Shown in pieces: positions 1,416-24,125 of a DNA stretch of 64,000 nucleotides. Under the pieces are notes generated by a model. That model saw only the letters and a list, made by a program, of their open reading frames with translations. It had not been told where the DNA came from and did no database searches. Location of the stretch: assembly GCA_964611575.1 (NCBI GenBank), contig CAZTAJ010000003.1, positions 15,360-79,359 of the forward strand. Direction: 5' to 3'. The stretch is from an uncultured Verrucomicrobiota bacterium. Its GTDB lineage: Bacteria > Verrucomicrobiota > Kiritimatiellia > CAIKKV01 > CAITUY01. Each line of letters opens with the position of its first letter. Positions within the stretch are counted from its first letter, which is position 1. The translations under genes were made by a program, and so were the position numbers.

Positions 1416-1416
1416 T

Positions 1417-1992: not shown

Positions 1993-3218
1993 GGTAGTGA
2001 GTCCTTACGCTTTGCGGCCTTTGCCTTTAGGTCATGGTAGCCCGGATGCCACCACACGACCTCCGTATCGGCCATCTCGTGGTAACTGCCTGGCACAAAA
2101 CCCGAAGGCACATCCATATTCTCGATCCGCGTGTGACCATCGGCACAGTCTGTGTAGATGAGCACCCCACGATCTACGTCGCGTAACCCGGCATCAGAAA
2201 TGCGTACTCGCTCTGTGACATTGTCCCACCGCCTCTTCAGCGAAGCCTCGAAATCCTTAAGACCCTTTGCGTGCACTCTTTGCGCTTCAACCCATTTTGA
2301 TCGGGTAACTGAGGCACGGAGCTTATCCTCTATGGCCTGCATCAGCCTGTCGCGGGAGAAGTCGATATACAGAAGCTGTTGCACATACGTGCGGGATTGA
2401 AGTTCTTGGTTCGTCTCCGATTCCGACGGAGAGTAGTCAAACGCCTCCAACACATGGTGCGCACCTACCCGTTGCTGGTACTGCTTCAGTTCCTCTATGA
2501 GTTCGTCACGGCTGATCCGAGCATCCTGATGACCCCCAATGGCGGCGTTGATCTTCTGTCTGATCCAGCTGTCGCCATGGTAGATGAGATCCAGTTCAAT
2601 CGACGAGTGAACCACTTGGTTCTTGGCAAAGTACTCCTTAATTTCTTTGAGGTGATCGCCACTGCCGCATTCGTAGACGAAATGCTGGATCATCTTGGAG
2701 ACAAGGTCGCAATGGTCAGTGAAGGCGCGCGCGAATCTCTTGATGTGCTTGCGGACTGTCTCACCAACTTCCGAGAAGCCGTCCTCTGTGGTGTCAACTC
2801 CACGCAGTTCATCAAGGATTGCTTGCACTGTCGCCTTGCACTCCTCGGGGCTTTGTGCGTCTCTGAGGCGATCCGCAAACGCGCCTTGGCATGGCTTCGC
2901 TATCCACAGAAAGAACGTTGTCTTCTCAGGAGACAGTTGCCCTGAAGACACTGCCTCAGCCCAGTTCGCCAGTGTCTTCCACAGATCCACGCTGCGGTCA
3001 GAAACCGGATTTCCGTCCAGCGATGACTTGTCTTGTTCTGCAAGAACCGTCTTGTCGGGGCGCTCAACACCGACATCATCAAACACTTCCATGCTGACGA
3101 TGCTGCTAGGTGGTGAGGTGAGAAGGCGATAGAAGACACGGTCATACTGCAGCGAATAGCCCAGTGCCTGTCCCGCTGCCGCTGTCTTGGAGATAGGGTC
3201 TATGGATGGTTCAGTCAT
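1989..3218 (-). CDS. lmuA: Lamassu LmuA-like effector: N-terminal Cap4-like PD-(D/E)xK nuclease plus ABC-3C C-terminal domain
   Basis: GYSLQY...EVFDDV...EQDKSS nuclease-like motif; C-terminal GSYHEMAD...WWHPGY; first gene of the lmuA-C-B order. Confidence 0.75.
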
Positions 3219-6200: not shown

Positions 6201-8491
6201 TTCTTACACTCGGCCGGCCAGAAGCCGCGCATGATCTTGTCCCCGGCAGCGGGCACCATGGCGTCGTTGAACACAAGGAAATGGTAGATCTCATTCTTCT
6301 TCCGGCCTTCGCCAGGCTTGAGTGGGCGCGGAGGTACAGCCTCTGCGCCACGATGCTTCCCCTCCATGACCTGTTTGGTCGTCCAGACCGCTCGGCGAGC
6401 GCCGATCAGGCTGTTACCGGGGCGGAGGCGAAGCCCGAACCAGGGTGTAGCACATGGAACCGAGGATTGAGACGCGGAAGAGGCGCCAACGGTGAGTTGG
6501 TGGACGGAGCCAAGCCAGAGCGTCAGGGAGCCGAGTTCGACAGCGGTGGCGTTCAGGTCCACGCCGTACACGTTACGGGTGGTTATGAAGTGCTTCACGC
6601 GCCGCAGTTCTTCCTGGTAGCGCCCCGGGGCAATCCTGACTCCGGTCTGGTCCTGCTTGAGAGCCAGGTAGCGCGCTGCCAATTGGTTGGCCACTTCCTC
6701 CAGGAAGGAAGCACTCCCCATTGCGGGCTCGCACACCTTCAGATCGAGAACCTTGTCGGCATCGGCTGGTGTGAAGTCTTTCAGCAGTTCGCGCAGGGCT
6801 TCCTCCACCAGGCAGCGGGTCAGCACTTCCGGCGTGTAGTACGATGCGCTCTGCTGGCGATCGATCGCCGACAGATACAGAATGAAGCTGCCTTGCGGAT
6901 AGATGCGGGGCTTGCCGTTCGCCAAGCGCTCGACCTCGTCCCTATGGAACTCCTCTTGGCGGGCGAGCGACACAAACCACGATTGGGTCTTGCTGTCGCT
7001 CAGGTCTTTGCCCTTGGGCTTGACCTGGATCATGTCTTCCGGCGCGAACACGCCCTTGTAGGACAGCAACCCCTCGTAGACCGAGCCCAGTTGGTTGATC
7101 CCGAGTTCAGCGTAGTTGACGCGCCCGATAGTCTTGGCTTTCTCGCTGACGCTCAGCGACAGTTTCTTGATGACCTGCTGCAGGCACTGATTGCGGAGGT
7201 CGGCCTTGTCGAGCAGAGGCGTGCTGGCAGGATCGAACAGGGTCGCGGTCAGGGGACGGACGGTGAACGTCTGCGTGAGTCCGGCATCGGCAAACGCCAG
7301 TTCACCTTCACCGGCGGTATCGGGATGAAAACCCTGGTGGATGATTGCGAACAACTTTCGCAGGTGCTGCTGGAAGTAGGTCCCGTCCTCAGTGGCTGGG
7401 GTCAGGGGCACCTGTTCGAGATCCCGAAGCGACTCAAGGCTGTACCCGAGGCGGTAGGCATCGTCATTGATGGGCAGGATGCCGAGTTCCGCCCCCCGCG
7501 CCTCAGCATAGAAACAGAAGATGAGCCGGTACACGTATACGAGCGACTCATGTTTCAGGTCCTGGGCAGAGACCGTTCGCTTGCCTGTTCCCGAGAAAGG
7601 ATCTTCTACCTCCTTGTACGACAGGTGCTTTCTGCGTCGGTCGTCAACCCATTCGTTGGCCAGGAGCTCGATAGCTTCATGCACCGCCAGTTGAAGCGCC
7701 TCGGTGACACCGTGGGCGAACTTGTGTGACTGCTCTTCCAGTTTGTCGTGAAGTACCTTGTCGGACTCACCGCCAGGACAAAGCGTTTCAGAGGAAAGAA
7801 AGGCGGCCATGCAGTCAAACGTATCCCGTTCCTTGCGCCCAAAAGCATCGTCGAGGTCAAAAGCAAGGTAACGGCCTTGTGCGTAGGTGGTGCGGTCCAG
7901 AAGCACGATAGCACTGCCGGCGAGAAGCATCATCCAACGCGGCGCATCCTCCTCGGTGAAAAGTCGGCTGGCCAGGCGTGTCCAGTCGCCTGAACAGAGC
8001 TTCACCTGGTGTTCGTCTTCGGTCAATTGGTCGGCAAACGGAACCGTCTCCAGCGGATCTTCGCTGGCCATGCCTTCCTTGAGGCTTGCCTCTGGCCAGC
8101 AGAAAGCGGTTTCGCAGATGGCCAGCCACGGCTTGTTGTAGCGGCGCACGCAGTCGACCGTCGGAACAAAAGACTGCCCACCTTCCACAGGGACGTCTTG
8201 ACGCGCCAGACCAGTGTAGCCCAGCGCCCCCAGGAGCAGGTTGTGCCACTTGGACAGGTCCTCGTACTCGGCGCGGTTTTGCCAGCGTCGTTCGGGGTTG
8301 TCCTCCTCCAATGCCTGGCCTTTGGCTCGGAAATACGGTTCTGCGAGGGCCTGCAGCCTGCGAGGCGGCGCCTCAGACCCTCGCTCCTTCCACTTGGCCG
8401 TAAGCTCGCGGATGTCCTTCGCGAAGGTGGTATCGAGGTAGTGGGCGGAGTAATACTCGCCGACGTTGCTTATGGCAGTGTCCAGCGGCAT
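3215..8491 (-). CDS. Large N6-adenine DNA methyltransferase (type IIG / DrmMI-like), 1758 aa
   Basis: [14 protein letters not shown], motif [17 protein letters not shown], motif IV IVGNPPW; long C-terminal TRD-like region. Confidence 0.9.
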
Positions 8492-11475
8492 TACCTTCCT
8501 CCTCCTTCAATCACCAACACAAGCCGCGTTGTCGGCTGGGCGGTCGCATCGAAGTAGGTTCGCTGCCAGTTGTCCTCCCGGTCCTTGGCGTAGGCGTTGA
8601 TCTCCTCGATCTCTCGCCGCCAGCGCTTGGACGCTGCATCGCCATCGGCAATCAGCTTCTCCAGGAGTTCCACCCGCCGCTTCTTCCAGTTGCGCAAACG
8701 CCGGGTTTCCTTTCTCAGGAGGGGCGCCATCTTTGCGTCGCGGTCGTGCTTCACCTGGCGCATGTGCTCCAGACTGGCATCTACCGCAGCCGCGATGAGT
8801 GGTTCGGCCGCACCGGACGACTGGAACTCGCCTTTGTTGATGAGGCTCTTGAACTGGGCCGCATCGAGCGCCTCGGCAAGTGACCTGTGCTTGAATACAC
8901 CCCCCTTTTCAAAGGATATGGCGTGGGCGTCCACCACGAGCGGTGTGCCGGACTTGCTGGACACCTGCCCGATGAAGCAGAAGCAGAGTTCACCGGGATT
9001 CAGGCCTTTTGAGAGAATGTGTGGCGCTTGGCCGCGCTTCATGACCATGACCAGACGTTCGGCAACCCATTGCAGCACGGGATTCTGGTCAAGAATCATG
9101 TGCACTTTGGCCCAGTGGCCGGCCGTATTCCGGGCGGCTTGGATGGCTAGGTTGGCATGATCGATGTTGTCGGTGAACTGGAACTGGTCGTGCTCAGGCC
9201 ATGCCTCGGACGGGATCGCTGTGGCCCCAAAAACGACATCGTCACGCATGTTTGGCGATCCGAGTCTACGGCTCAGGTCACCGGGAGCATCGACGGTGAC
9301 CATGTGTCCATCCTCCCGGATGGGGCGGTAGTCGTGGTTCAGTTCGGCCAGGTAGCGGTATCCCTCGACAAGGAAATCCCTATCCTTGTACAAGCGAAGC
9401 CGTGACGTGCACTGCTCAGGCGCTCGCACGGTTTCATCCATGCTGGGTGCTGCAGGCCCTTCGCCCAAGAGGAATTTCAGATAATCTCCTTCACCTTCCT
9501 TAGTCGCCGACCGCAACACCTCCTCGAGAGCACTGGCCTCAGCGGACTGGGTAACGGTCGCCGCGCTTTCCAGCACGGCAGTGTTGCCAGCAAGAATCCC
9601 TTTCTCCGCGATGTACCGTTCCTCCGCCTCGGGGTCATAAAGCTTGAGGACACTCTCACCTGATCGTGTGGAACGGTTGATCTCCTCCACCTTGGTGATG
9701 AGACGGTCGAAAATGTCCCGATCTCCGGCGAGTTGTTCCTGCCGCGAGTTCACCATGAGGTAGCGCAGGCAGGGGGTGTTGCGCTGTCCGAAGCGGTCGA
9801 TACGTCCATTCCGCTGGATTAGCGTGATGATGGACCAGGGCAGATCGAAGTGGATGATGTTATGGCACTCGTGGTGAAGGTTGATTCCCTCAGAGGCAAC
9901 ATCCGTTGCCACGAGCATTCGCATGGGTGAACTGCCCGTGCCGAAAGACTCGACCGTCTTCATGAGGTGGATGTCCGGGACTCCACCGTGAATAACGCCG
10001 ATCGCCTGGTCCGGCTGTTGATCGAAGCTCTTGGAGTGCTTGATGTTGAAGTCCCTTACCAGCGCCGCTACCAAGGCTTCCTGGGTCTGGCGGTACTCGG
10101 TGAAGATCAACACTCGCGGGCTCTTCTTGCCGCCATCCCACCCGAGTTCCTTCAATTGCTTCTTCAGTAGCTTGTACCTTGTCGAGGCACCGATGGACTG
10201 TCCCTTCAAGGCGTCTTGCAGATCTCTCAGGTACGGGCTCTCGTTGCTCTGAGGATCATGCTTCTCAAGGTGCTCCTCGCGTTTGCTTGCCGTTGATGCA
10301 CAAGCCTCGGGACTCGAAAGGAAGAGCTTGTAGAGGCCATACTGGATGAGGGTGTCAATGCGTTCACCGCTGATGCCGAGGTTCTTGTTGTGCTGACGCA
10401 TTCGGGCGAAGACATCGAGGACCCTCTCTTCGGCCTCCGATGCTGACTCAGAAGTGGCGTTGAGCGGCACTACATGACGGTCCTTGAAGTTCTCGCCCGC
10501 CTCTTCACGGACATCTTCCTTGAAACGCATCAGGAAGAAGTCCTTGATGTCCTCCGGCTCGTACTCCCTGAATCTGGGGTCAGGGATGGCAGAGGGGTCC
10601 AGGAGGCTGATTAACCTGCCGAATGTCTCACGCTGGCCGTTGTGAGGAGTGGCCGTCGTGAGCAACAGACTATCCGTGCGCCTGGCCAGGAGTCTCGCAA
10701 GTCGGTGGCTGAGGTGTCGTTCCGGGACGCTGGCGCCGGCCACGTTATGGGCCTCATCAATCACCACAACATCCCATCGTGTCTCTTCCAGGAAATGCCG
10801 GTAACGGCCAACATCCTTCAGGGTGTCGATGCTGATGATGATGCGGTGGTAGATCTCAAAGGGGTTCTTATTCGCGGGAATACGCAACCTCAGACGGGCG
10901 ATGCCCAGGGAGTCCAGTCGAACAAGGGGAATTCCGAAGCGATTCCACAACTCCGACTGGAACTGAGTCAGCATGGACTTCTTGGCGAGGACGAGGATCC
11001 GGTTTGCCCGCCCTCGTCTCATGAGTTCCGTGATAATCATTCCGACTTCGATGGTCTTGCCCAGTCCCACAGCATCAGCCAGAAGGAGCCGGGGCCGAAG
11101 CTGCAGCAGCGCGCGATGGACTGCCTGGCGCTGGTACTCCATGGGCTCGAAGACCCCCATGCGATCGAGGTCCGGGGCGATTCCCGTGACAGGCATTTGA
11201 CGAAGTTGTGCCTCCAGGAACAGCCTTGCCATGCGGTAGCCGCTGGAACCGTCGGGGACGAGTGCCGTGTTGCGAGGATCCACCGGCTCGATGACATCCA
11301 GTTGTTCGAGGAATATCCGTTCCTGTCCGCGTACGAGATCGTCGGCCCCCACGCAGTGGATGGCGTTGTGCCTTCCCGACTTGTCGGCAGGAGACACGCG
11401 GGTGACCAGCCACTCCGCGTCTCGGCAAAGCACGCGCATCCCAGCGGCGAACGATGTATTCGTGCTAGACGGCAC
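8491..11475 (-). CDS. SNF2-family helicase/ATPase (DrmD-like), 994 aa
   Basis: [10 protein letters not shown] (Walker A), [24 protein letters not shown]; TAATG overlap with the methyltransferase start. Confidence 0.9.
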
Positions 11476-11476
11476 C

Positions 11477-11875
11477 CTAACAGTCCTCCGGATTGATGCA
11501 CAGATCGTCCCGTCCTGCCACGCGCAGGCAGGCGTTGATCACTTCGGCGTCATCGTCAAAGCCGATAGGCGACTTGTGGTCATCCTCTTCCTTGTTGGCG
11601 GACGAAAAGTACATAATCATGCCTTTGCACCAACAACGCGCGAACGGGGGAACAGACTCCCATTCCTTCACCACGGTCTCGATACGCCCGAGAAGCGCCT
11701 CGGCCAGTGCCAGGTCCAGGAGAGGATACCTTTTGTAGGCTGTCTGAGTCTGGACAACATGCTCACGCGCCTGTGCGAGCAGGGCTTCCACAGGCAGTGC
11801 CTCCGCCCGTGCAACGCACTCGTCCAAGTCCCTCATCTCGGTGGGCGACAGCCCCTCAGGCAGGAAACTCGACAT
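11477..11875 (-). CDS. Hypothetical 132-aa protein with a YkvA/DUF1232-like acidic motif
   Basis: Likely start MSSFLPEG (ATG at 11875, GAGG upstream). Motif YF...EEDDHKSPIGFDDDAEV resembles the G-x-x-DD motif of DUF1232. Stop lies 1 bp before the SNF2 start. Confidence 0.6.
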   Translation of the reverse strand: MSSFLPEGLSPTEMRDLDECVARAEALPVEALLAQAREHVVQTQTAYKRYPLLDLALAEALLGRIETVVKEWESVPPFARCWCKGMIMYFSSANKEEDDHKSPIGFDDDAEVINACLRVAGRDDLCINPEDC

Positions 11876-11879
11876 CGCC

Positions 11880-12071
11880 TCACCCTTCCTCGTCCCTGGC
11901 GCGGCCTGACTTGACCCAGTCGTTGACCTCCGCGACATCGAACTTCCAGAGCCGACCGACCTTGTGCGCCGGCATTTCGCGCATGCGGATCCACCGATGC
12001 ACGGTATCCTTGCTCACGCCGAGATGCGCGGCGATCTCCTCCAATGAGTACCATCGCTCAGGCCCAGACAT
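11880..12071 (-). CDS. Excisionase-like helix-turn-helix (HTH_17/MerR-like) DNA-binding protein
   Basis: 63 aa, WYSLEEIAAHLGVSKDTVHRWI...PAHKVGRLWKF; GGAGG RBS upstream. Confidence 0.85.
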   Translation of the reverse strand: MSGPERWYSLEEIAAHLGVSKDTVHRWIRMREMPAHKVGRLWKFDVAEVNDWVKSGRARDEEG

Positions 12072-12116
12072 GGTCTCGACCTCCCATCCTATGCAACATG
12101 CTTTACGCGCTTATAC

Positions 12117-12145
12117 AGCTTAAACCGGAGTTATTCGTATCACAA
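12117..12145 (-). promoter_or_regulatory. Possible sigma70 promoter for the HTH-SNF2-MTase-Lamassu operon
   Basis: Minus strand TTGTGA-N17-TAAGCT about 45 bp upstream of the HTH start. Confidence 0.3.
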
Positions 12146-12214
12146 CGGCCTTCGCGGACAAAGACAAAACGTGCGGTAGCGGCAGATCACGGCCACGGCA
12201 CAGAGCGCTGGATG

Positions 12215-15200
12215 TCAAGGGATTGGCCCATTCGGGGGCTCTAGCCGAATCTGCATCTGCTGGATGAAGCGTTCTACGTCGGATGGAGGAATCTGATTGA
12301 GGAGAAACGCGAGCATGTCTTCCTGCCTGGGCTGGCCGAAAACCATTCGATAGGCCACCAGCGACCGTTTGAGGTCCTCGAAATCTTGGACGTCCCGGCT
12401 CATGGGCAGCATGGGCACGTGCCGTTCAATGAATGCTCCATTCTGAACCGGGAAGACCCAGAAGGGATGAAGATCATTCGCGTCTGCCGGTCGTTTGCTG
12501 ACCGCAGCTCGGAAAACTGAGTCCCAAGGATCAGGGCTTGTGCCATCAAACGCTGCCTCGCTAAACACGCGAGCCAGATTCTTCCGGACGGCATGTCCTT
12601 TGTATCGGTGTATACGCCCCTCCCGCTGCTCAAGGTCCACGGGGTTGGACGGCAAGTTCCAATGCACAATCGCGTGGCAGTACAGGTGGAAGTCGAGCCC
12701 CTCCTGCCCTACCGAGGTGGTCGACAGGACGAACGGCCAAAAGGGGGAGTTGAACGCGCTGCGCACCTGATCCGTGCGTGCGACCTGCTCTTCATCCTCC
12801 GACCGCTCGGCACCGAAGCGAAGGGCGAATCGCACCCGCATGTTCCGTCGGTCGACGTCAATACCGCCTTCACCTTTGACTCGGATGCGATCAACTCCGA
12901 CACGCGAGGTGCGCAGGCTCACCGATCCGGCGATCTCTTCAGCGATGTCAGCGCAGGCTTCCTTGAACGGATGGTCGAACACTCCCAGCGATTCCCTCAG
13001 TACGTGCACGTACTCGTCGAGCACAGCCTGCAACCCTCCATCCAGGCAGTACTCGGTGACACGTAGCCAGTAAGGTTCGCGCCGGTTCATACCCCTGATG
13101 AGACCCAAGCTTTCGGGCAAGTTGAACAGGGACAGGAAGGCGTAGGCGATGGCACCTGCTTGGTTCCGCGCAATGGGTTCGGCGAGCGCATCGGCAGACG
13201 CAGAAAGTCGGCCGAGTGCCCGCAGGCAACAGGGGCCAAGGCCGGCAACAGCCATGAGCGCAAGTACATGAGCAAGATCAGCCGGGCGCTTCCCGAGCGA
13301 CAGGGTCTTCTGCAGGTACTTCTGAACCAGATCGCGAGCCTCTTCGACGTGATCACCCCAGCGGCTTTCCTCGGATTTGTCCTCATCCTGCGTTGAATAG
13401 CAGCGCCAGGCTTGAATGAGGTCCTTCTGGGAAAACCAGGCAACAGCAGCCTTCCGATCGCTAAGCAGGTCCAGAAGAATGGGTGCCGCCCAGTACCACC
13501 GCTCGTCTTCCGCTCCTGTCGTCGTGGCGCGGACTTTCAGTCTCGCCAGCATCGTCTCAATGTCCCGCTGAACAGAGGCGACTACGGCTCCGGCTGATGG
13601 GACACCCCCATCATGGATAAGGGTCGGCACAACTTTCAGTGGGTCCCCGCACCGGGCCAGCGTAATGCTGGGGTAGATCATCCCGAGCACCGCCATACCC
13701 GTAAGGCGCTCGTCCGATCTGGCGAAACGTAGCAACGGTCTACGTGCTTTGCGCGCGGCCTCATCATTACTCGCATCAGGCTCAAAAAGCAGAATGCTTT
13801 GCCTTTCGGCTTCGTAGCTGACCATAGCCGAAATCACCTTCGGGACGACCTTCCAGCAGGAGAAGACCAGACGCTTAGTGATACCGGCAAGGGCTGGATC
13901 TGCGTATGGACCGGCGAGTTGGTAGTATGGCAAAGATGGAGGCATCCAAAGCAGTTTCCACGCCCCTTTGTCAACGGTATCGGCCATCAGGGACCGGAGC
14001 CTGGCGTTTCCAGAATCGCATTGGCGGTACTTCGATATTTCACTCCAGCGGAGGAGCAAGTGCTTCCGGTCCGCCAGAAGCGTAGCGAGCCGGTCTGTCT
14101 GCCCGGAAGCCACATCACGTAGGAAGTCCCTCTTGAGGACATAATCATCCATGAAGTTCAGCAGGTAAGGTGCAGACTTCCAGTACTCCACGGTCGTACC
14201 GTGCGACAGTTCGTCGGCAACCTGTTCATGCCTGATGAATGCATGCAGGTCTTGCGGCGTGAGCGGGACAGGGTCTGCGCCCACCTGTTTCAGCATCCCG
14301 TCACGGTCTGTGGTTGCGGCCAGTCTCTCCGTTCGAACCATCACGCGCCTGAGTCGGGTCTCCATCTCCTGCTTTACGGCAAGCAGTCCGCCATCCGGTT
14401 CCTGGCCGAGCGTAAGCATGCGTCCTCTGTAGTCGTCGAGGACATCCTTGAAAGCATCGGTCTCGGCCTTGTTGTCCTGGAGAAATCCGAGTGTCGTCAG
14501 AAAATCGGCATAGTGGTCGTCCTGTTCCGTTTCATGGCTCAGGGTGAGCATCTTGTAGGGGGTGGCCGAGAGCAAAAGAACATGGGCACGCGAATGGCCG
14601 TCAGAGTACTGGAAGAGGTCCTGCGCCAGGATAGCGGCCTCGTTGTCTCCTGTTAGAAGATGCCGAAACCGCTGGAACTCATCCATGATAATCAGATCTG
14701 GCTCCAATGCCTCCAGACATGATGATGCGAGAAGAGCCCGAAGCTCACCAATCACGCAGTTACGCTCCTGCCCGTCCTCCCGCGAGATGCGTGCGTCGTG
14801 ACGGCAGAACGCCTCGCACAGTCGCTCAAATCGAGATCGGATGTCCGGCTTGCCCTCGCGCTTCTCAGTCGCAATTCGATGCTCCAGGTCTTCCAGGAAC
14901 CCGGCTTCCACAGAGGCGTCAACCTTGGTCTCTGAGGAAAACATGCGCCGGCAGCGGTGGTGGAAGTTATTGGCGTACATCCCACCGCGGAGCACGTTTG
15001 CCGGGGCTTTACCTCGAAGATTCCACGGCCCACGCAGGAGGCGGTACAGAAGCGCGCGTTCATCGGATATCCCCATGCTGGACTTCAGATCGAAAGATGT
15101 ACCCGGAGTGAAGGAAACGAAGTTCAACTTGTTCGCCTTGAGATCATGAATGCAGGTGGGAAGCATTGTGATCCGCGACGGCAGGGAGAAGTCTCTGTCC

Positions 15201-15490
15201 TTGGTGATGTTCAAGCGAGCGATGTTCTGTCGAGCGATGTCGCCGTTGGAACAGATATAGACAATGTCAATTCGTGGCACTTTGTCCCAGAGGTGGTCAA
15301 TGGCACGGGCAACGACTCCACGCGCGACCAGTGTCTTCCCCAGGCCGACTTCATCCGCGATGAGAAATCGCCGGGTAGGATCGCTGGGGTTGTACATTCG
15401 GTCGAATACGTAGTCCACAGTGCGACGCTGGAAATCCTTCAGGCCGGCAAGCACCTTGTTCACGTCGGGTTTCTCGCGTCGGCGGGTCAT
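12215..15490 (-). CDS. SF2/SNF2-like helicase of the DUF6361-PLD-helicase triplet (Azaca ZacC-like)
   Basis: IADEVGLGKT, IMDEFQ, SATP, GQEGLD, QREGRIHR; start MTRRREK inferred from an ATGA overlap with the PLD stop. Confidence 0.85.
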   Translation of the reverse strand: MTRRREKPDVNKVLAGLKDFQRRTVDYVFDRMYNPSDPTRRFLIADEVGLGKTLVARGVVARAIDHLWDKVPRIDIVYICSNGDIARQNIARLNITKDRDFSLPSRITMLPTCIHDLKANKLNFVSFTPGTSFDLKSSMGISDERALLYRLLRGPWNLRGKAPANVLRGGMYANNFHHRCRRMFSSETKVDASVEAGFLEDLEHRIATEKREGKPDIRSRFERLCEAFCRHDARISREDGQERNCVIGELRALLASSCLEALEPDLIIMDEFQRFRHLLTGDNEAAILAQDLFQYSDGHSRAHVLLLSATPYKMLTLSHETEQDDHYADFLTTLGFLQDNKAETDAFKDVLDDYRGRMLTLGQEPDGGLLAVKQEMETRLRRVMVRTERLAATTDRDGMLKQVGADPVPLTPQDLHAFIRHEQVADELSHGTTVEYWKSAPYLLNFMDDYVLKRDFLRDVASGQTDRLATLLADRKHLLLRWSEISKYRQCDSGNARLRSLMADTVDKGAWKLLWMPPSLPYYQLAGPYADPALAGITKRLVFSCWKVVPKVISAMVSYEAERQSILLFEPDASNDEAARKARRPLLRFARSDERLTGMAVLGMIYPSITLARCGDPLKVVPTLIHDGGVPSAGAVVASVQRDIETMLARLKVRATTTGAEDERWYWAAPILLDLLSDRKAAVAWFSQKDLIQAWRCYSTQDEDKSEESRWGDHVEEARDLVQKYLQKTLSLGKRPADLAHVLALMAVAGLGPCCLRALGRLSASADALAEPIARNQAGAIAYAFLSLFNLPESLGLIRGMNRREPYWLRVTEYCLDGGLQAVLDEYVHVLRESLGVFDHPFKEACADIAEEIAGSVSLRTSRVGVDRIRVKGEGGIDVDRRNMRVRFALRFGAERSEDEEQVARTDQVRSAFNSPFWPFVLSTTSVGQEGLDFHLYCHAIVHWNLPSNPVDLEQREGRIHRYKGHAVRKNLARVFSEAAFDGTSPDPWDSVFRAAVSKRPADANDLHPFWVFPVQNGAFIERHVPMLPMSRDVQDFEDLKRSLVAYRMVFGQPRQEDMLAFLLNQIPPSDVERFIQQMQIRLEPPNGPIP

Positions 15491-17346
15491 TGCTGAAGCT
15501 CCTGTCTCACCTGCCAGATGGGCTCCCATGCTCTGATGAACCCCGGAGGAAGCAGATTCATGCCGTCAGGAGTCTTCCCGAGATCGTCAACCAACCTGGC
15601 CACCCGGTCAAGTTTCTCGGGATGGCGATGAAGCGTTCGGAGTAGTGGCTCAAGGAGTGAGAGGTCTTGATGCAGCCAGGAAGTGCCGTCGGCATCGTCC
15701 TTGCCCACGTTCTTCCGGAAGTCAGCCAGTTTGGAGAACGCATCCGAGTCCTCGTCTGCCAGCAGGAATAGCAGAAAACGGATGACCTCACCGCGATTTC
15801 TAAGGAGTGTGCGCACTAGTCGTTCCCTGCGATCTTCTGGCATTCCCTCAACCGGTACGTTCACAACGAACTGCTTGATCGTCGTGTGTTTGCCCACCTT
15901 CGCCTTCACCTCAAAGGCAAAGAAAGTGGTGATGGCTTCGAAAGAGATGGCCTCAAAGGTCGCGGAGAAGCCGGATTGGCGGTCAGGGGGGATCCCTGCA
16001 CTGTCTGGCAGCGTGACAGGCCAGGCCTTCACTTCCACTCCGTCGGGAAAGACGGGTGTTCCTCTCGTGGTCAGCCGGAGGGAGAACCTATCGGCAATGG
16101 TCGAGGGACCCACTTTCCCTGTCATCCGTGCGGTTGCAATGGCTGTGCGCGCTGACTCGGCTAGGTCCTCAGCTTCCTGCTTTGCCTTGTCGATTGGCGG
16201 CGGTTCCGCCGGTGCGCTGTACTCTCGCAATAAGTCACTGAAACGTGTTTCCCCTTTGACCTGGGCCATGATGGCGTCCACACCACAGAAACTCTTCTTC
16301 CCAGTCAATTCCACCATGAACTCGACGTTCCGACGAAAGGCGGCCGTAGTGGCATTTGCCGAGCCAGTCCAGATGCGGGCATTCCATCCGGCATCCGCGA
16401 CGAACAGCTTCGCGTGAAGCCCCTGGAGGGGGGCATCGCGAAGGTCTTCCGCCGCTTCTGCGTCGTCAGCGTCCTCAATGTCGGCGTCCGGGTCCAGACA
16501 GTAGACCTTATGGAAGCACTGCAGGTCCTCTTTGCTCATGGCGTTCAGCACATCGACACGGGAAACGAGCATGTCCCCGTCTTCCGCAGCCGCCAATTCA
16601 GGCAGCACACCTGCATCCAGAAACGGCGAGATAATCAGGAGGCGATCCAAGCGACCGTCAGGCTTCCATCGTGACTCGCCCTCAATGCCGATAGCATGGA
16701 AACGAAGGTCCGAGAATCCCTCCGGAGGCGCGAAGTTGACCTTCCGCAACTCACGTTCCATGACGGCGACGTGCTGCCGAAGAGAAGACGGCGCCTCCCT
16801 GAGCATCATCCCTGGTAGCGAGGCCACAAAGTTGGCCAGGGGATGATTGGCGGCGTAAGCGTTCTTCCGCTCCATCACTTCTCCTTCGAGTGACAGCAGC
16901 GTGTCCCAAGAGCGATCGAAGGTGAGGTTGCGGCTGAGGCACAGGACGCGGTACATCACCGGCACGGACGAATCAGAAGGGAGAAAGCGGAGCACCCAGA
17001 CCTTGGGATGGAAGATGCCATGCTTCCGGGGCGCCGTGACTTCGTGGACCATGTTTTCGAGGTTGTTGAGGAGGATGCGATTCCCCTTCGGGACGGAGAT
17101 CCCGCCAGCCTGACAGAAGATGTGAACCCTATCCGCATATCGTCGTATGGCTTCCAGGATCGCCAGAGGGTCACCGGTAGGCTTCCCCGCGTCATCTTCC
17201 CAGTCGAAAAGCGCAAACGCGAGCGGGACCGTCAAGAGTGTCATAAGGTCCAACGAATAGGTTGTCCCGATGGCGCGTTCAAGGTCATAGCCGACCGGTG
17301 GACGAAGGGCTTCAAGCAGGTGACGACGTTCCAAGGGCCTAAGCAT
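15487..17346 (-). CDS. Phospholipase D-family nuclease-like protein
   Basis: Full HKD motif LHAKLFVAD...GSAN and a degenerate one FHPKVWVLR...SRNLT. Confidence 0.8.
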   Translation of the reverse strand: MLRPLERRHLLEALRPPVGYDLERAIGTTYSLDLMTLLTVPLAFALFDWEDDAGKPTGDPLAILEAIRRYADRVHIFCQAGGISVPKGNRILLNNLENMVHEVTAPRKHGIFHPKVWVLRFLPSDSSVPVMYRVLCLSRNLTFDRSWDTLLSLEGEVMERKNAYAANHPLANFVASLPGMMLREAPSSLRQHVAVMERELRKVNFAPPEGFSDLRFHAIGIEGESRWKPDGRLDRLLIISPFLDAGVLPELAAAEDGDMLVSRVDVLNAMSKEDLQCFHKVYCLDPDADIEDADDAEAAEDLRDAPLQGLHAKLFVADAGWNARIWTGSANATTAAFRRNVEFMVELTGKKSFCGVDAIMAQVKGETRFSDLLREYSAPAEPPPIDKAKQEAEDLAESARTAIATARMTGKVGPSTIADRFSLRLTTRGTPVFPDGVEVKAWPVTLPDSAGIPPDRQSGFSATFEAISFEAITTFFAFEVKAKVGKHTTIKQFVVNVPVEGMPEDRRERLVRTLLRNRGEVIRFLLFLLADEDSDAFSKLADFRKNVGKDDADGTSWLHQDLSLLEPLLRTLHRHPEKLDRVARLVDDLGKTPDGMNLLPPGFIRAWEPIWQVRQELQQ

Positions 17347-18550
17347 GTTTCAGGCCCTCCATGATGTCGGTAACGATCTGGTGGGTCACTCCCCATCGGA
17401 AATCCAGGCGCCCGGCGCCGGCTGCGCCAGTCCAGAGTTCGAGAGCCCTCGCATTTTCCAGCCGGGCCAAGGATTTCTTGAGAGCCCGCTCTCGTTCCTT
17501 GATGAGTTGCCGGGCCCCAGCGTGTGCTGCCAGCTTAGCGGGGGAAGGCGCAGTCAGAACCAGAATGACCCAGTCTTTCGTGAACCTAACGGTTCTGGAG
17601 GGTACTCTCGCCCCTGCGGTATCCAGAATCTGCCAGAATCGCTCCTGATTCCAACCGCGGAGAGCCGCGCCTCGTGCGTTGACCAAATCAGCCCACTGTC
17701 GAAACTGTTCGTCGTAGTGATGAATGAGTTCATCATTGCGGCCAAGCTGCGAGAGCATCAGATTATAGAGGAGGGCTGCACCATGGATTGTCTCGGAGAA
17801 ACACCGCGCGTGGTCCACTTGCTCCTTATTGAGCGAAGGAAAATCCCCATAGCCAGCGTCGGCCCAGCAGAATGGGCTGTCGCTCGGAGAGGTCCTGCGG
17901 GAGATCAGATGTGCTAGGAGCGACCTCGGGGCATGAGTCAATACCCGTTCCTGCAAGTATTTGGCCTCCTTGCGGTCCAGTAGGAAAGAAGCATCATCAG
18001 GAAATCCTTCGGGCACTGGGGGCAGGCCGGAGTGCCAATTCAGGCCGGCACTTCCAGACACGACATCCCCGTCCTCGCTTCGCAGCATCCGACCCCGTGT
18101 CGTGCGCCAGCGGTCGACCGAACGGTGATACTGATCCTGTGATCCGTTGAAGAGACGTATGCCCCAGGCCCCTAAGCCCTGCCAGTAGATGTTGCTCGGC
18201 AGCCGCCGTAACGTCTCTCTGGCGACGCGACCGATGACATCCAGGGTTTCCCCTCCCTTCTCAAGACCGTTGACCAGCGCGATCTCGCGTGTCCTCGCCC
18301 ATTCTGCGATGCGAGCCGACTCGATTCTTCCTTCCTCTGCTGCCCGGTAGATCCATGGGATGAACAGGAAATACCTGGCGCGCGTCTGGACGGTGCCGGT
18401 GCCCGGGAAGAGCAGATCAGCGAAGCCGTCGCGGATCGTGCCGATGCCCAACTCGTCCCGAGTGCCCTGCTCACCAAATGCCTCAATGACATCAACCATC
18501 TTCCGGCGTTCGTGCTCCGAGTAGTCTAGCCATGTGAAGGTTGATCTCAT
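17339..18550 (-). CDS. DUF6361-like protein, first gene of the triplet
   Basis: Likely start MRSTFTWLD; GTRDELGIG..RD.FADLLFPG..T.QTRARY.LF, LPSNIYW; 8-bp overlap with the PLD gene. Confidence 0.7.
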   Translation of the reverse strand: MRSTFTWLDYSEHERRKMVDVIEAFGEQGTRDELGIGTIRDGFADLLFPGTGTVQTRARYFLFIPWIYRAAEEGRIESARIAEWARTREIALVNGLEKGGETLDVIGRVARETLRRLPSNIYWQGLGAWGIRLFNGSQDQYHRSVDRWRTTRGRMLRSEDGDVVSGSAGLNWHSGLPPVPEGFPDDASFLLDRKEAKYLQERVLTHAPRSLLAHLISRRTSPSDSPFCWADAGYGDFPSLNKEQVDHARCFSETIHGAALLYNLMLSQLGRNDELIHHYDEQFRQWADLVNARGAALRGWNQERFWQILDTAGARVPSRTVRFTKDWVILVLTAPSPAKLAAHAGARQLIKERERALKKSLARLENARALELWTGAAGAGRLDFRWGVTHQIVTDIMEGLKHA

Positions 18551-18701
18551 ATTTTCTCGAATGCTAGCGCGCCTAACGCGCGGATATCTGAGGAAAGCTA
18601 CCACGGCAATCTAGCCGGTTCAAGGTTACGCACACCTCACACACGCACGACCACGCACCTGCTTGGGGATCTTGGCGAAACCGCGCCACACAAGCGTCCA
18701 T

Positions 18702-18742: not shown

Positions 18743-19369
18743 ATGTGGGGATTGATAATGCGTCGCTACCCAAAGAAGCTGTCTGTTCTGGTCACGAGGC
18801 TGTCGAATCAGGAGCGGAACGCCATTGACCGGACTCTGGCCTTTATGACGTACAACCCCTCGATTGGGCGTGTCCTGGAGAAAGGGGGCGTAGGGAAGTT
18901 CCAGGAATTTGCGGTAAAGCGCCTTCTCCCCCCGTTATCGAAATGCCAGACCCGTGGAGCCTTTGACAAACATGTGCTCGGATCAATCACGTCCCTGCGG
19001 AGGATCCTCAAGACTCACGGCGGCCAGCCGGCCTCATTCGGCCAAGCGCAAAAGCCGGTTACCGTATTCCTCAAGGTCTACTGTGACTGGGCGAATCGCC
19101 CCTCACCGGCCATTGCCGAGGTGGTGCGACCATGGCTTCACGTGCCACTGGACAGCATTCTGATGAAATGGCTCCGCCAGAACCTCCGCGCGGACTTCGA
19201 TGCCAGAATCGCACACATCTATATAGAACACGGGATCAGGCCATCGAAGCTGGATCTGCTACATATGAACCGGGCAATGTACCTCGCCTGGCAGAAGTGG
19301 TTCCGCGAAATCCACCCTAAACGCCCCGTTCTACTGGATGTCATCTGGGCCGTGCAGAGGGGTGCCTGA
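18743..19369 (+). CDS. Hypothetical protein, possible helical (HhH/AGOG-like) DNA glycosylase fold
   Basis: Motifs GQAQKPVTVFLK, HVPLDSILM and C-terminal LLDVIW; promoter upstream. The fold call is inference. Confidence 0.45.
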   Translation: MWGLIMRRYPKKLSVLVTRLSNQERNAIDRTLAFMTYNPSIGRVLEKGGVGKFQEFAVKRLLPPLSKCQTRGAFDKHVLGSITSLRRILKTHGGQPASFGQAQKPVTVFLKVYCDWANRPSPAIAEVVRPWLHVPLDSILMKWLRQNLRADFDARIAHIYIEHGIRPSKLDLLHMNRAMYLAWQKWFREIHPKRPVLLDVIWAVQRGA

Positions 19370-19385
19370 ACTGCTTTCGGCCAAA

Positions 19386-19760
19386 TCATCGCCGAACGTC
19401 CTGAAGTCTTCGCTCAAGCACCGCCTCAAGGCGCCGCACGAGGTTACTGCGCCACTGAGGGACCATGTCGGGTGGATAGAGCGCAAGCACGTCGAACTGG
19501 TTTTCCTGATAGACGCGCAGCTTGTGCCGAGCACTGGCGATGTAACCGGGATCTCCGGTAATGCCGAAGTATTCGATGAGCGGGCCGCATTGAAGCGAGA
19601 AATCTGCGTACCATATTTTCGTCTTCCCGGCATCCACAACAGCCGTCGGTTTTTCATAGATGAAGGGAATGCGCCGGCTGTCGAGAAAGTCGCCGATCTG
19701 GCGTTCCATGCGGGATTTGTACTCAGGCCTTCGGCCTGTTTGGTAATTGCAATCGTCCAT
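19386..19760 (-). CDS. Small stand-alone PD-(D/E)xK / Vsr-like nuclease domain protein
   Basis: E..I..FL....I.F.YEK...YADF...IEYFG...Y....K...Y pattern. Confidence 0.55.
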   Translation of the reverse strand: MDDCNYQTGRRPEYKSRMERQIGDFLDSRRIPFIYEKPTAVVDAGKTKIWYADFSLQCGPLIEYFGITGDPGYIASARHKLRVYQENQFDVLALYPPDMVPQWRSNLVRRLEAVLERRLQDVRR

Positions 19761-19850
19761 CCCATTGGGAGGGAAAGGTAGTATTTGAAGGTTTCGGTAA
19801 GCCGAATACCTGGCCGGTAGCTTTATAATCGAGTGGTGCCTGCATAAAGG

Positions 19851-20327
19851 ATGGCGCTCAACAACGGCCGGATCAAGTGCGGCAAGGGTTCATGCCGACG
19901 GACCAAAGATCCCGACTGGGCGGCGGCCGAAAAAGAAGTCGGCAGGATGCTGGCGGAGCTTCTTCTGGATGGCTGCCTTGTCCTGAATGATGTGCCGTTC
20001 CCGTATGGCAATCTGGATCATCTTGTTATCAGGCCGGATGGCACCGTATTCCTCATTGAAACGAAGTCCCATCGGGGCAAGGTCACCTGGGACGGTAAAC
20101 GGCTCTTGATTAACAGGCGCCCGTTCTCCTCAAATCCCATTTGCCAGATTAACCGAAGTATCCGGTGGGTGCGACAGATGGCCAAGCGGCTTTTCGGGCA
20201 CAACCCCTGGATCGTGGCGATCCTCGCATTCCCGAATGCTCAGGTGGTGATCCGGCGACCCGTGAAACGGATCAACGTGCTCAACTCCAAGGATATTCTC
20301 GCGTTCATCAGAGCGTACCGACGTTGA
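19851..20327 (+). CDS. NERD-domain nuclease
   Basis: E..V...L...LNDV...NLDHLVI...VFLIETK..G; no extra domains. Confidence 0.8.
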   Translation: MALNNGRIKCGKGSCRRTKDPDWAAAEKEVGRMLAELLLDGCLVLNDVPFPYGNLDHLVIRPDGTVFLIETKSHRGKVTWDGKRLLINRRPFSSNPICQINRSIRWVRQMAKRLFGHNPWIVAILAFPNAQVVIRRPVKRINVLNSKDILAFIRAYRR

Positions 20328-20491
20328 TCTCTCCCACCTTCACATCTCACTTGATTCCGCGCTCCCATCCTGTCCCAAATCTTCCCTGCCTGTTCCAGCG
20401 AAGCCCATGGACCCGCCGCACCGCACGCACGCATACTGACGAACAGAAACCGTACGCACGGTTTGGAGCTTTGTTCAGCAGGAGGACGGCG

Positions 20492-21433
20492 ATGACACCT
20501 GGCGTTACATTCAGACAACTTTTTGAGGTTCTCGAGAAGATCCCTGGATTGCAGCGTACGGACTGGGAGCACAATCAATCCGGAGCGGACAGGGGGCTTG
20601 AGAGCGTACTTATTCAGAGAACCACGCGCGAAGTGGCGACGTATGCGCTGGTTCAACTCCGATTTGTGACGATGCCGGAACTGCTGGCCAATGACAATCC
20701 CATTCGCGACGAAACACAGACGGCCGAACTACTCTCTTGGGCAAGGAGTCAAGGGCCCGGCGGGTCCATGATGATGAAGGTCGTAACGAACACAACGGCT
20801 CCAAGTGATCGGCGTCGGATCGGCGCGCTGGCAGTGCTGAGGTACTACCACAACAGGGAAGATGACAATCCGGTGGTCAAACGCCCATGGACAGACGAAG
20901 GCATGAACAAGCTTCCGACTCTCGACGTCAGTAGCCTTTTGGTCTATCCCACGTCTGGCGACTTCTGGGGAAAGAAATTCGAAACCATCCGACGTTTAGC
21001 GGACACCGTCCTCAGGATGAATCTGCCGAAGCTGTCCAGTGATCAGGTGCTATGGGACCTGAGAAGCGTCAAAGGGGTAGGCCCACAAACGGCCAGCATG
21101 GTCGCTCTATTCTGGCTCGCGAGGCCGATACCAATCATCGACAGCTATCTGACCAGATTACTCGTGAGTCACGGACTCGTGCCTGGCACGTTGGATGGCA
21201 GTCTCGCTCAGGATGACCTGAGGCGCCACCTCATCCTTTGGGCACAGGAAATGGCTGTGAGTAGACCTGACTGGCCCGCGCACCGATTACTTAGCGCGCT
21301 GTATCTCTGGGCGTGCGAAGTCGGCCGCTTGCACTGTACCTGCGCCAAGTTACCGTCATCGAACTGTCCCGTTCGACGATTGCTGAATCACATCAGCGGG
21401 CGGGTTGCTTCTATCCAAGACATCAGGCAATGA
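20492..21433 (+). CDS. HhH-GPD (endonuclease III-related) DNA glycosylase with an insertion, 313 aa
   Basis: GGAGG RBS before ATG 20492; VLIQRT, HhH LRSVKGVGPQTA, catalytic-type IIDSYLTR, and a C-terminal Cys cluster WAC..HCTC..NCP. Confidence 0.75.
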   Translation: MTPGVTFRQLFEVLEKIPGLQRTDWEHNQSGADRGLESVLIQRTTREVATYALVQLRFVTMPELLANDNPIRDETQTAELLSWARSQGPGGSMMMKVVTNTTAPSDRRRIGALAVLRYYHNREDDNPVVKRPWTDEGMNKLPTLDVSSLLVYPTSGDFWGKKFETIRRLADTVLRMNLPKLSSDQVLWDLRSVKGVGPQTASMVALFWLARPIPIIDSYLTRLLVSHGLVPGTLDGSLAQDDLRRHLILWAQEMAVSRPDWPAHRLLSALYLWACEVGRLHCTCAKLPSSNCPVRRLLNHISGRVASIQDIRQ

Positions 21434-22639
21434 GGACACCCACTTCCTCTCGCTATCTGCGTCAATGTGCGTGTAGATCGCATTCACCTCCACGCTGGAA
21501 TGGCCCATGATGGAGCGGGCAATGGCCTCGGGGCAACCTTGCTGCTTCAAGATGGAGACGAAATTGTAGCGCAGGGAATGAAAGTCGATCTCGGACTTAT
21601 GAAGTTTTGCCGGATGCTCGGACATGTATTCCACGCCTGTCCTTTCTGCTTGCCGCTTCGCCCTCCTTCTCTTCACGTAGCGCCGGTTTATGTCGTATCG
21701 GTTGTCCTTCCTTAAGCTGGCTCTGACAAGCGCCTTACGAAACGCCTCGCTTGCCCTGTGATGACTCTTGTAGAAAGTCGGAAAAACCGGACCACCAAGA
21801 CTCTTGACCCGGGCATCAATATGAGGTGAGAGCGTACTGTGGGTGTCAGGTAACTCAGTCGCTCTCAATTCGTAGGCAGACTGTAGTTCATCCAACAGAC
21901 GCGGATGGACGGCAATCTCCATGTGCTTGCCACGCCGCTTGCTCATTCGCCACCGAATGACTCGGTTCTGGAAGTCAACATTTGACCACGTGAGGCACAC
22001 AATGTCGCTTAACCTCAGCGCCCCGGCATAGAGGCCAATGGTGGCAAGCAGTCTGACATGGCCAGTAAGCGACACGAACAAATCACGAAGCTCTGTCTCA
22101 GTGAACGGACGACGTACGGATGGAGATTCGGGAAGGATGGGAATCCCAACTGTGACATCCTGAAGAGCGAAGCCATCACGCACCGCAGATCGGAAGACGC
22201 TTCGGAGCCGGCGCAGATAGCCGTTGTGCGTGCGGGCGTTGAAACGGTCAGCGACGTGATCGAGAAAGCACCGAAGCATGTTCCGGTCAAGTTGGGATAT
22301 GGTCGTAGCATGAGGAAAGTTATGCCTGAGCCAATCAACAAACCTCTTGTCACGGGAGCAATACAACTCTCTCGTCCTTTCCGCCACGTGTTTGCGACGG
22401 CTCTCAAAAATGACTTCGACAGCAATTGGACGTATGGTTTCAGACTCGATCGCTCGCGCCAGTTTCTGCGATACGGTGCCGGTCTCGGCTTGCTGTACAA
22501 GAACAAGTTCAACTTCGCGAAGTTGAAGCTGCGCCTTCCCCTCGTCGTCAGTACCTGTTGATTTACGGACTTGTTTCCCGCCGATGCTATAGCGGATCCA
22601 CCAGTTATCAGAACCGGGTTGTTTGAACAGTGTAGCCAT
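21356..22639 (-). CDS. Tyrosine recombinase / phage-type integrase
   Basis: Catalytic set ALRLSD (R), FHSLR (HxxR), MGH (H), IYTH (Y); N-terminal arm-binding-like WWIRY region. Confidence 0.92.
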   Translation of the reverse strand: MATLFKQPGSDNWWIRYSIGGKQVRKSTGTDDEGKAQLQLREVELVLVQQAETGTVSQKLARAIESETIRPIAVEVIFESRRKHVAERTRELYCSRDKRFVDWLRHNFPHATTISQLDRNMLRCFLDHVADRFNARTHNGYLRRLRSVFRSAVRDGFALQDVTVGIPILPESPSVRRPFTETELRDLFVSLTGHVRLLATIGLYAGALRLSDIVCLTWSNVDFQNRVIRWRMSKRRGKHMEIAVHPRLLDELQSAYELRATELPDTHSTLSPHIDARVKSLGGPVFPTFYKSHHRASEAFRKALVRASLRKDNRYDINRRYVKRRRAKRQAERTGVEYMSEHPAKLHKSEIDFHSLRYNFVSILKQQGCPEAIARSIMGHSSVEVNAIYTHIDADSERKWVSSLPDVLDRSNPPADVIQQSSNGTVR

Positions 22640-22796
22640 GTCGTGCGCCCTTCTGGTGTCTCCTGGCCATCTCTGAACCTGATGGTCCGTTTGCTGAACA
22701 ATTTAGCATAGTTCAGCATAGCAAGGAAAGCCAAAACGGCAGACAAATGCACTATTTTGCTACATTTGGCCACTTATTTGTTGATTAAGCGTGGAT

Positions 22797-22843
22797 ACAT
22801 CCAGCGTGTAAAGCTGGCGCTCTGCCAATTGAGCTAACCGCCC
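22797..22843 (-). pseudogene. 5' fragment of tRNA-Val(TAC); T arm and acceptor 3' strand absent (probable att site)
   Basis: Minus strand GGGCGGT TA GCTC AATTGGCA GAGC G CCAGC TTTACAC GCTGG ATGT has intact D and anticodon arms with TAC. It is followed by ATCCACGCTTAATC with no GTTC T-loop and no ACCGCCC. Confidence 0.85.
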
Positions 22844-22910
22844 GTCGGAAGGATCAGGGCAGGCATGATGAGGGATGGGTGGCGGGCATTCAAGGCAGAA
22901 TCGGCCGCCA

Positions 22911-24125
22911 TCAGACCGATGGCCGCCGCAGTCCCCCGCGCAAACCCCATACGCCCAGGAACAGAGCCGCCACCAGGGCCGCACCCGCGCAAACCAGCAA
23001 CGGCGCCATCCCGCTGCCCGTCTTGTCCCATAACCAGCCCGTGAACAGGCTGGCCACAATCAGCAGCACCCCCTCAACCATCCCCCAGAATCCAAACGCC
23101 GTGCCCCGCTGCCCTTCCGGAACGAGATCCGCAATCACCGCCTTCCCCGCCCCCTCAGTCAACCCGTAGAAGCAGCCGTAGGCCACAAACAACGCCCAGA
23201 CACTCCACGCCGGCCGGCTGAAGGCAAAGCCCACATAGACCAGCGCATACACCCCCCACCCCGCCACCAGCACCGGCAGCCGGCCAATGCGGTCGGACAA
23301 CTTGCCGCCCCAGACCGAGGTGCCGGTCTTGATCAGGTGCAACAACGCCCATAGCAACGGCAACAACGCGATGCGCACCCCCATGTCCTGCGCGCGCAGC
23401 AACAGGAACGCATCGCTCGAATTGGCGATGGCAAACAGGGACGCCGCCGCCACATAGAGAAAGTATTCGCGCGGCAACTGGCCCACACCCGCAAACGGGT
23501 TGCGCACGGGCTTGGGCGCCACCACACGATCCTCCCGGTCGCGGACAAAGAAGACGATCGTGAGCACCGACAGCACCCCCGGAATGAAGGCCCACAGAAT
23601 CGCCTTGCGCATGGCCGGCAGGTCGCTGCCCAGCCAGTACAGCAGGCCAAACCCGATCAACCCGCCCACCATCGCGCCGGCATGATCCATCCCGCGTTGA
23701 AATCCGAACGCATGCCCGCGCATCGACTTGTCCGAGAAGTCCGCCACCAAGGCATCCCGCGGCGCCGTGCGGATGCCTTTCCCGATCCGGTCAAGCACCC
23801 GCACGACCAGCACGAACACGGACCCCCGCGCGAAGGCTACGAGGGGCTTGAACAGGGTGGATAACGTGTAACCGGCCAGGACCAGCCACTTGCGGTTGCG
23901 AACCCGGTCGGCCAGCGAGCCGGCGAAAAGTTTGATGATCGCCGGTAATCCCTCGGCGATCCCCTCAATGGCCCCGATCATCGCCCGCGACGCGCCAAGC
24001 TGCATGAGGAAGGCGGGCATGATCGGATACAGGATCTCGCTGCCCATATCCGTGAAGAAACTGACAAAGCCGGTGGCTTTCACCACACGGTGCAGACGGG
24101 GGCGGGCGGTAGTGTCGGTGGTCAT
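22911..24125 (-). CDS. MFS transporter
   Basis: About 12 hydrophobic segments; GSLADRVRNRK and GKLSDRIGR MFS motif A repeats. Confidence 0.92.
   Translation of the reverse strand: MTTDTTARPRLHRVVKATGFVSFFTDMGSEILYPIMPAFLMQLGASRAMIGAIEGIAEGLPAIIKLFAGSLADRVRNRKWLVLAGYTLSTLFKPLVAFARGSVFVLVVRVLDRIGKGIRTAPRDALVADFSDKSMRGHAFGFQRGMDHAGAMVGGLIGFGLLYWLGSDLPAMRKAILWAFIPGVLSVLTIVFFVRDREDRVVAPKPVRNPFAGVGQLPREYFLYVAAASLFAIANSSDAFLLLRAQDMGVRIALLPLLWALLHLIKTGTSVWGGKLSDRIGRLPVLVAGWGVYALVYVGFAFSRPAWSVWALFVAYGCFYGLTEGAGKAVIADLVPEGQRGTAFGFWGMVEGVLLIVASLFTGWLWDKTGSGMAPLLVCAGAALVAALFLGVWGLRGGLRRPSV

Follow-up and report, generated by a model that had tools for sequence, protein, structure and literature searches.

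A 5′ remnant of tRNA-Val(TAC) beside a tyrosine integrase marks a defence island that probably carries the 5′ part of its target gene

Results

The window, by which we mean the whole 64,000-nucleotide stretch of DNA that was analysed, lies on contig C3 of a metagenome-assembled draft genome of an uncultured Verrucomicrobiota bacterium (G000; 4.77 Mb in 319 contigs, 88.7% complete with 1.6% estimated contamination). Coordinates without a prefix are those of the window, and the part of the contig to its left is C3:1-15359. At the junction described here, the features follow one another on the minus strand from the host chromosome into a genomic island: a host MFS transporter gene (22911..24125), a candidate host tRNA promoter (22865..22893), a displaced 5′ remnant of tRNA-Val(TAC) (22797..22843), the integrase-proximal arm of the island (P′ arm, 22640..22796), which is the non-tRNA DNA from the junction to the integrase start, and a gene (int) for a tyrosine integrase of 427 aa (21356..22639). 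The MFS transporter gene shows 80% identity in the sister species G001 and about 71% in six genomes of the family.

The remnant, or stump, was characterized by sequence reading, by the Rfam tRNA model and by comparison with an intact tRNA gene on contig C136. Read from 22843 to 22797 on the minus strand, its sequence is GGGCGGTTAGCTCAATTGGCAGAGCGCCAGCTTTACACGCTGGATGT. It comprises positions 1-47 of the tRNA: the 5′ strand of the acceptor stem, the D arm, an anticodon arm whose anticodon is TAC, and the first bases of the variable loop. Neither the T arm nor the acceptor 3′ strand follows the stump, which leaves positions 48-76 missing at the int-side junction, and the island sequence directly past it is ATCCACGC... 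/ ATCCACGCTTAATC.... ARAGORN called no tRNA across the whole window. The Rfam tRNA model scored the stump at 27.7 bits, below the gathering score of 29, and needed a forced false acceptor 3′ strand to do so. A preliminary description, made from the letters alone, had read the stump as a tRNA-Val(TAC) with perfect D and anticodon arms that diverges at the variable loop, and as a copy left unrestored beside the integrase. The sequence and its identity to C136 bear out the first point, and the two tRNA searches the second.

The candidate promoter was read by eye and consists of TTGAAT (22893-22888), 17 nt and CATCAT (22870-22865). It is kept in G001, and was not listed by our sigma-70 consensus scan. 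It points through the remnant into int. Between the stump and int we found no terminator-like hairpin, and the sigma-70 consensus scan gave no promoter before int.

The integrase matches PF00589 with 53.3 bits (cut-off 27.1) and also contains SAM-like N-terminal domains. Its gene runs in the same direction as the tRNA remnant and starts (22639) 157 nt past the stump. Within the intervening arm lies a tandem motif, CTATGCTGAACTATGCTA (22704..22721, minus strand), a candidate pair of arm-type integrase sites that is conserved before int across the integrase clade. The 4.77-Mb assembly contains exactly two copies of this motif (CTATGCTNAACTATGCTA), even with three mismatches allowed: one before int, and one 140 nt upstream of the intact tRNA-Val(TAC). 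By chance, the window would be expected to hold none. An 8-bp inverted repeat, TGCTGAAC/GTTCAGCA, occupies 22692-22699 and 22711-22718. Its second arm overlaps the tandem motif, and its first takes the place of an inverted half-site, AGCATAG, in the relatives. The conserved cluster before int consists of two direct half-sites and one inverted half-site. The inverted repeat forms part of this cluster, for which an arm-site role is a candidate function, and the earlier suggestion that the repeat may be an arm or regulatory site was broadly right. The integrase presumably binds the motif. Only one integrase of this clade is present in the G000 assembly, the next best match being 29% identical. 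As a separate observation, contig C46 contains a tRNA-Leu(TAA) together with a distant tyrosine integrase match at 29241-30437. This tRNA is among only six calls in G000 without an encoded CCA (two of which are unreadable calls at contig edges), and C46 is possibly another island junction.

The rest of the integrase module (18743..21355) is 85-89% shared with the island of G001 and includes a gene for a NERD-domain nuclease (19851-20327). The module common to the two islands spans roughly 3.4 kb, and their other cargo differs. In the window, defence genes on the minus strand occupy 1..18604. They encode ZacABC (12215-18604), a DrmD-like SNF2 helicase with a type IIG RM/DrmMI enzyme (3215-11475), and the Lamassu proteins LmuA (1989-3218) and LmuB (C3:14771-16774). 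The left part of the contig adds Gabija GajA with a UvrD-like helicase partner (C3:10715-14664) and a 2194-aa DEAD/MZB helicase (C3:2152-8736). The GC content of the island (C3:1-38155) is 0.576, compared to 0.653 for the chromosome flank on the right. Since C3 starts inside the island, the island is longer than 38 kb.

G000 contains 41 tRNA genes, including a single tRNA-Val(TAC), which is intact and located at C136:1923-1998. The two other Val tRNAs have the anticodons GAC and CAC. All 47 nt of the stump, plus one upstream C, match the 5′ part of the C136 gene at 100% (E about 2e-20), an identity far above chance. Base 22844 and the stump thus form a 48-nt direct repeat with C136:1922-1969; the identity block begins one base before tRNA position 1, and the flanks outside the 48 nt are unrelated. 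The preliminary description had pointed to a full copy, or to the T-arm and acceptor half, as what might be found elsewhere. The C136 gene is such a full copy, and the G000 assembly contains no displaced 3′ fragment of tRNA-Val. One candidate was rejected: contig C13 matches the tRNA 3′ end over 20 nt, through a simple repeat of the CCCTGAAC type and not a tRNA fragment.

The DNA upstream of the intact tRNA (C136:1-1922) resembles accessory DNA. Its GC content is 0.50-0.60, no DNA homolog turned up among 30 relatives or when G001 and G012 were searched specifically, and it codes for an HTH_17 (excisionase/AlpA-type) domain and for a sigma-70 region 4 HTH protein. The second copy of the tandem motif, CTATGCTAAACTATGCTA, which is nearly identical to that of the window, lies here at C136:1783-1800 in the same orientation. 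Just upstream of the rebuilt tRNA, the sigma-70 consensus scan listed no promoter; an extended -10-like element, TGCTGTAAT, was seen by eye at C136:1906-1914. On the other side, C136:3885-9469 is conserved chromosome in several relatives and starts about 1.9 kb downstream of the tRNA, which indicates that host DNA resumes soon past it. C3 and C136 are separate contigs, with no overlap that links them.

For the chromosomal part of C136, G001 offers no homolog at the DNA level, and the identity to relatives more distant than G001 is 78-92%. The GC content of the contig (0.604) and its tetranucleotide use do not depart from the range seen across the bin, and by these measures mis-binning is not indicated, though mis-binning or horizontal transfer of the segment may still have occurred. 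Should C136 be foreign, the attR structure seen on it would nonetheless be that of this element family.

Two further features lie in the DNA just downstream of the rebuilt tRNA (L021). A 167-aa ORF fragment (C136:2103-2606) without a Pfam match is multi-copy; it also occurs on contig C127 of G000, and often at contig ends in many relatives, G004, G008, G009, G011 and G014 among them. The fragment probably belongs to a mobile element that is repeated. About 90 nt past the tRNA, at C136:~2080-2115, there is a CA-rich simple repeat, CACACACACAAACACACACACATACACACGCGC.

The integrase clade consists of about 20 clusters at 53-60% identity, plus the 93% ortholog of G001, and for each member whose flank was long enough we read the sequence that precedes int. 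The motif precedes int in all of these. In nine elements, including the one in the window (relatives at 53-93% integrase identity), a 5′ tRNA stump in the same direction as int comes first, then DNA unrelated to the tRNA, then the tandem motif and finally int itself. The stump derives from Val-TAC in G000 (positions 1-47) and at the same junction in G001. It derives from Arg-CCG in the L040 family, which has a host oxidoreductase gene upstream, and in L053/L054, which have a second motif upstream. It derives from Pro-TGG in L043, L050, L047, L066 (with host mnmG upstream) and L068. Across the nine elements the stump ends at positions 40-47. On an integrase tree, tRNA identity tracks the phylogeny, with Val, Pro and Arg subclades. 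In the alignment, the distance from the anticodon stem-loop to the motif is constant, which suggests that the anticodon stem-loop is the core site.

L053 and L054, which come from two different samples, carry a second motif in slightly degenerate form, CTATGCTAGACTGTGCC, 141 nt upstream of the tRNA start, a spacing that matches the 140 nt of C136. The order in these contigs is an arm with motif, tRNA-Arg 1-41, an arm with motif, and int. They would represent an attP-like or tandem-copy form of the junction, as expected if the element carries the 5′ part.

Other members of the clade differ in layout. L070 (1-400) has the canonical arrangement, in which an intact tRNA-Arg stands 36 nt before the motif with its 3′ part in the near arm; its core-to-motif spacing is the same as in the members with a 5′ stump. 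In L069 (553-775), which is nested in the Pro subclade, the layout is flipped, and the reverse complement of tRNA-Pro positions 76->27 adjoins the near arm. Both may be decaying copies, since their int genes have no ATG at the conserved start (ACG in L069 and ATC in L070). In L037 (416-852; also L038, L039 and L051), an intact tRNA-Gly(CCC) with a terminator hairpin is located 176 nt before the motif. We recognised no tRNA stump in L037, whose cargo is BREX-like with a PAPS-reductase. A scan of genome contigs for the integrase returned only G001 and two partial matches in Lentisphaerae/Victivallales MAGs, and a scan of viral contigs for the arm motif returned only coding-sequence matches in unrelated phages.

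The preliminary description had named an assembly chimera at about 22797 as an outcome that would undo its reading. A chimera appears unlikely, because the junction is also present in the independently assembled G001 and the architecture recurs in eight other elements. Furthermore, at 48 nt the repeat falls short of the contig overlap of 55 nt found in the G000 assembly; both junctions were therefore assembled through, and are no artefact of repeat collapse.

G001 is the only genome of the same genus, and its tRNA-Val site is also occupied. It has the same junction, a stump with two substitutions and the same int module. As a far arm of its island, we found in G001 neither a second copy of the motif nor a homolog of C136:1-1922, and no intact tRNA-Val(TAC) was found in this 94%-complete assembly. 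Of the gene, the assembly holds positions 1-47 as a 5′ fragment and positions 30-76 as a 3′ fragment, with an overlap of 18 nt. The 3′ fragment has no encoded CCA and lies about 65 nt downstream of the gene for a different, 630-aa tyrosine recombinase (loci G001:C188:60854-60897, which is L014 1501-1544, and L020 3-1892). We considered this fragment as the far end of the present island and ruled it out on account of that neighbour, which points to another element, one of the usual type, in this tRNA gene. Two arrangements could account for the fragments: elements in tandem with an intact copy missing from the assembly, or a gene that is genuinely split.

We found no relative free of the island, and those at the family level do not keep the MFS gene beside tRNA-Val, so attB could not be reconstructed. 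In G003 both flanks occur within 14 kb, but in divergent orientation. In G012, which belongs to another genus of the family, a contig-end 3′ fragment of tRNA-Val(TAC) (positions about 31-76, CCA present) lies at G012:C200:7700-7953 (L033 2650-3054). It is preceded by an AlpA-like small gene, a far junction of the usual type at the same tRNA.

Discussion

We consider it likely that a defence island of at least 38 kb has inserted into the single tRNA-Val(TAC) gene of this bacterium, that its attP includes the 5′ part of the tRNA, and that the gene is re-formed at the far end, on C136. In order, the attP would contain a far arm made up of the HTH_17 gene, the motif and about 120 nt; then tRNA positions 1-47; then a near arm with the motif cluster; and then int. 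The tyrosine integrase would recombine this site with the anticodon stem-loop of the host tRNA gene, the crossover presumably falling in the anticodon loop. The resulting attL, in the window, would consist of the host promoter, the host 5′ part, the island arm and int, with the 47-nt stump being dead. At attR, on C136, the island arm with the Xis-type gene and the motif would be followed by the island 5′ part and the host 3′ part. C136 would then be the far end of this island, and the attR tRNA-Val(TAC) would be the sole working copy, now reliant on upstream signals, including a promoter, that the island supplies. No displaced 3′ fragment is expected from this arrangement, and none was found in the assembly.

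The preliminary description had left two options: either the attP supplies the 5′ part and the intact gene stands at the far end, or the tRNA is inactivated and restored only on excision. The first is supported by C136, where the intact tRNA, island-type DNA and the motif occur together, by the attP-like contigs, and by the clade-wide architecture. These, together with the stump, are direct observations.

A disruptive integration is an improbable alternative. Here the attP would share only a short core with the host gene, which would be split, and the C136 tRNA would be a complete gene inside the island. Element-borne replacement tRNAs of this kind exist in mycobacteriophages (PMC10865867), and C136 is without a physical link to C3 and holds a multi-copy, mobile-looking gene fragment within 1999-3900. 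The overlapping fragments of G001, with no intact copy, would also suit a split gene, but the 3′ fragment adjoins the 630-aa recombinase and so belongs to another element, and G000 contains no such displaced fragment. The identity between stump and C136 covers 48 nt from the tRNA 5′ end, whereas a core of roughly 10 bp would be expected. Finally, the motif lies at almost the same distance upstream in C136 (140 nt) as in L053/L054 (141 nt), where only the 5′ part of the tRNA is present.

The second option of the preliminary description, a gene-integrity switch, is very improbable. It would hold tRNA-Val(TAC) inactive until excision and would attribute C136 to another strain or organism in the sample. 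G000 is a draft bin whose contamination is estimated at 1.6%, the sister species has no homolog of the chromosomal part of C136, and the G001 assembly likewise has no intact copy. These points are outweighed by the one intact tRNA-Val(TAC) in the same assembly and by the lack of a displaced 3′ fragment there. The counts of the motif and of the clade integrase in the bin fit one element, and C136, even if foreign, would show together with L053/L054 that elements of this family bring the 5′ part with them and make the gene whole again. Moreover, tRNA-Val(UAC) is normally the sole decoder of GUA by wobble decoding. As the other Val tRNAs are only GAC and CAC, its loss should be strongly counter-selected.

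Very improbable, too, is secondary damage, in which a canonical island like L070 (with its intact tRNA-Arg directly before the motif and int, and the same core-to-motif spacing) later lost the 3′ part by deletion or a second insertion and the intact copy is unrelated, since the break region (positions 40-47) repeats in nine elements, three tRNAs and different hosts, G000 and G001 have the junction in common, and the evidence for the far arm from C136, L053 and L054 would be left unexplained.

Within the reading that we favour, in which the attP supplies the 5′ part, the comparison across the clade prompts a more tentative idea. Core and motif distance are fixed, while the carried half or its facing varies (nine 5′-fragment elements, one canonical in L070 and one flipped in L069), and for this reason target polarity might be an easily switched trait. 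Integration might also rewire the expression of int as well as the promoter of the tRNA itself, because the host tRNA promoter points through the stump into int without a detected terminator. We regard this combined proposal as possible but rather doubtful.

For annotation, these results mean that half a tRNA next to an integrase need not indicate decay or assembly error, and that programs looking for a 3′ fragment will overlook islands with a 5′ fragment or place their bounds wrongly. For the host, the sole GUA decoder under standard wobble rules would now depend on upstream signals from a mobile defence island. Such tRNA dependence would tie the fitness of host and island, and precise excision would be needed to return the gene. 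With three tRNA identities, three layouts and one core-to-arm geometry, the clade offers a compact comparative set for the change of integrase target polarity.

Comparison with known systems

In canonical islands and prophages at the anticodon loop (the Islander ‘A’ site), as probably here, an anticodon stem-loop core is accompanied by flanking arm-type repeats and an adjacent int, and the tRNA is kept functional. Those islands carry the 3′ part of the tRNA, whereas this one would carry the 5′ half, which leaves the int-side fragment dead; unlike them, it would have to supply the signals upstream of the tRNA. The int-side junction is without positions 48-76 and the assembly is without a 3′ fragment of tRNA-Val, which sets the island apart from the canonical 3′-fragment class. 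ICEKp1, in which promoter use for int depends on the state of the element, offers only an architectural parallel: when it is integrated, int is described as lying downstream of a tRNA gene promoter (PMC13023037).

In the tRNA-dependent lysogeny of mycobacteriophages, a core of about 10 bp is used and a separate, complete phage tRNA complements the host gene (Guerrero-Bustamante and Hatfull 2024, PMC10865867). As in our case, the int-side tRNA is not reconstructed; the element is responsible for keeping tRNA function, as it would be here. The present element differs in its 48-nt identity from the tRNA 5′ end, with L053/L054 carrying the whole 5′ part, and in that the gene would be re-formed at the other junction.

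A passage of PMC6563490 that cites Zhao and Williams 2002 (J Bacteriol 184:859) documents integration events in which a tRNA gene has its 5′ part displaced. Islander lists a 5′ tDNA fragment for 159 of 3919 islands and a 3′ fragment for 3760 (PMC4383910, Table 1), and its pipeline accepts 5′ fragments upstream of the tDNA (PMC4383910). The preliminary description had treated the arrangement as exceptional, which was overstated: it falls in a minority class of about 4% of Islander islands.

The reversed-orientation islands of that class (Zhao and Williams 2002; Islander), as citing papers describe them, likewise combine a tyrosine integrase and a tRNA gene with a displaced 5′ part. They re-form the intact gene with the 5′ part and upstream DNA of the element, at a site centred on the anticodon, as the present island probably would. 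The present case has its two ends on separate contigs and a stack of defence systems as cargo, and its integrase clade is small, comes from uncultured bacteria, has no named members and also includes canonical and flipped layouts. The island is a further case of this documented class, whose 5′-fragment layout is itself already known, and the new part, modest and purely observational, is the variety of layouts seen across one integrase clade.
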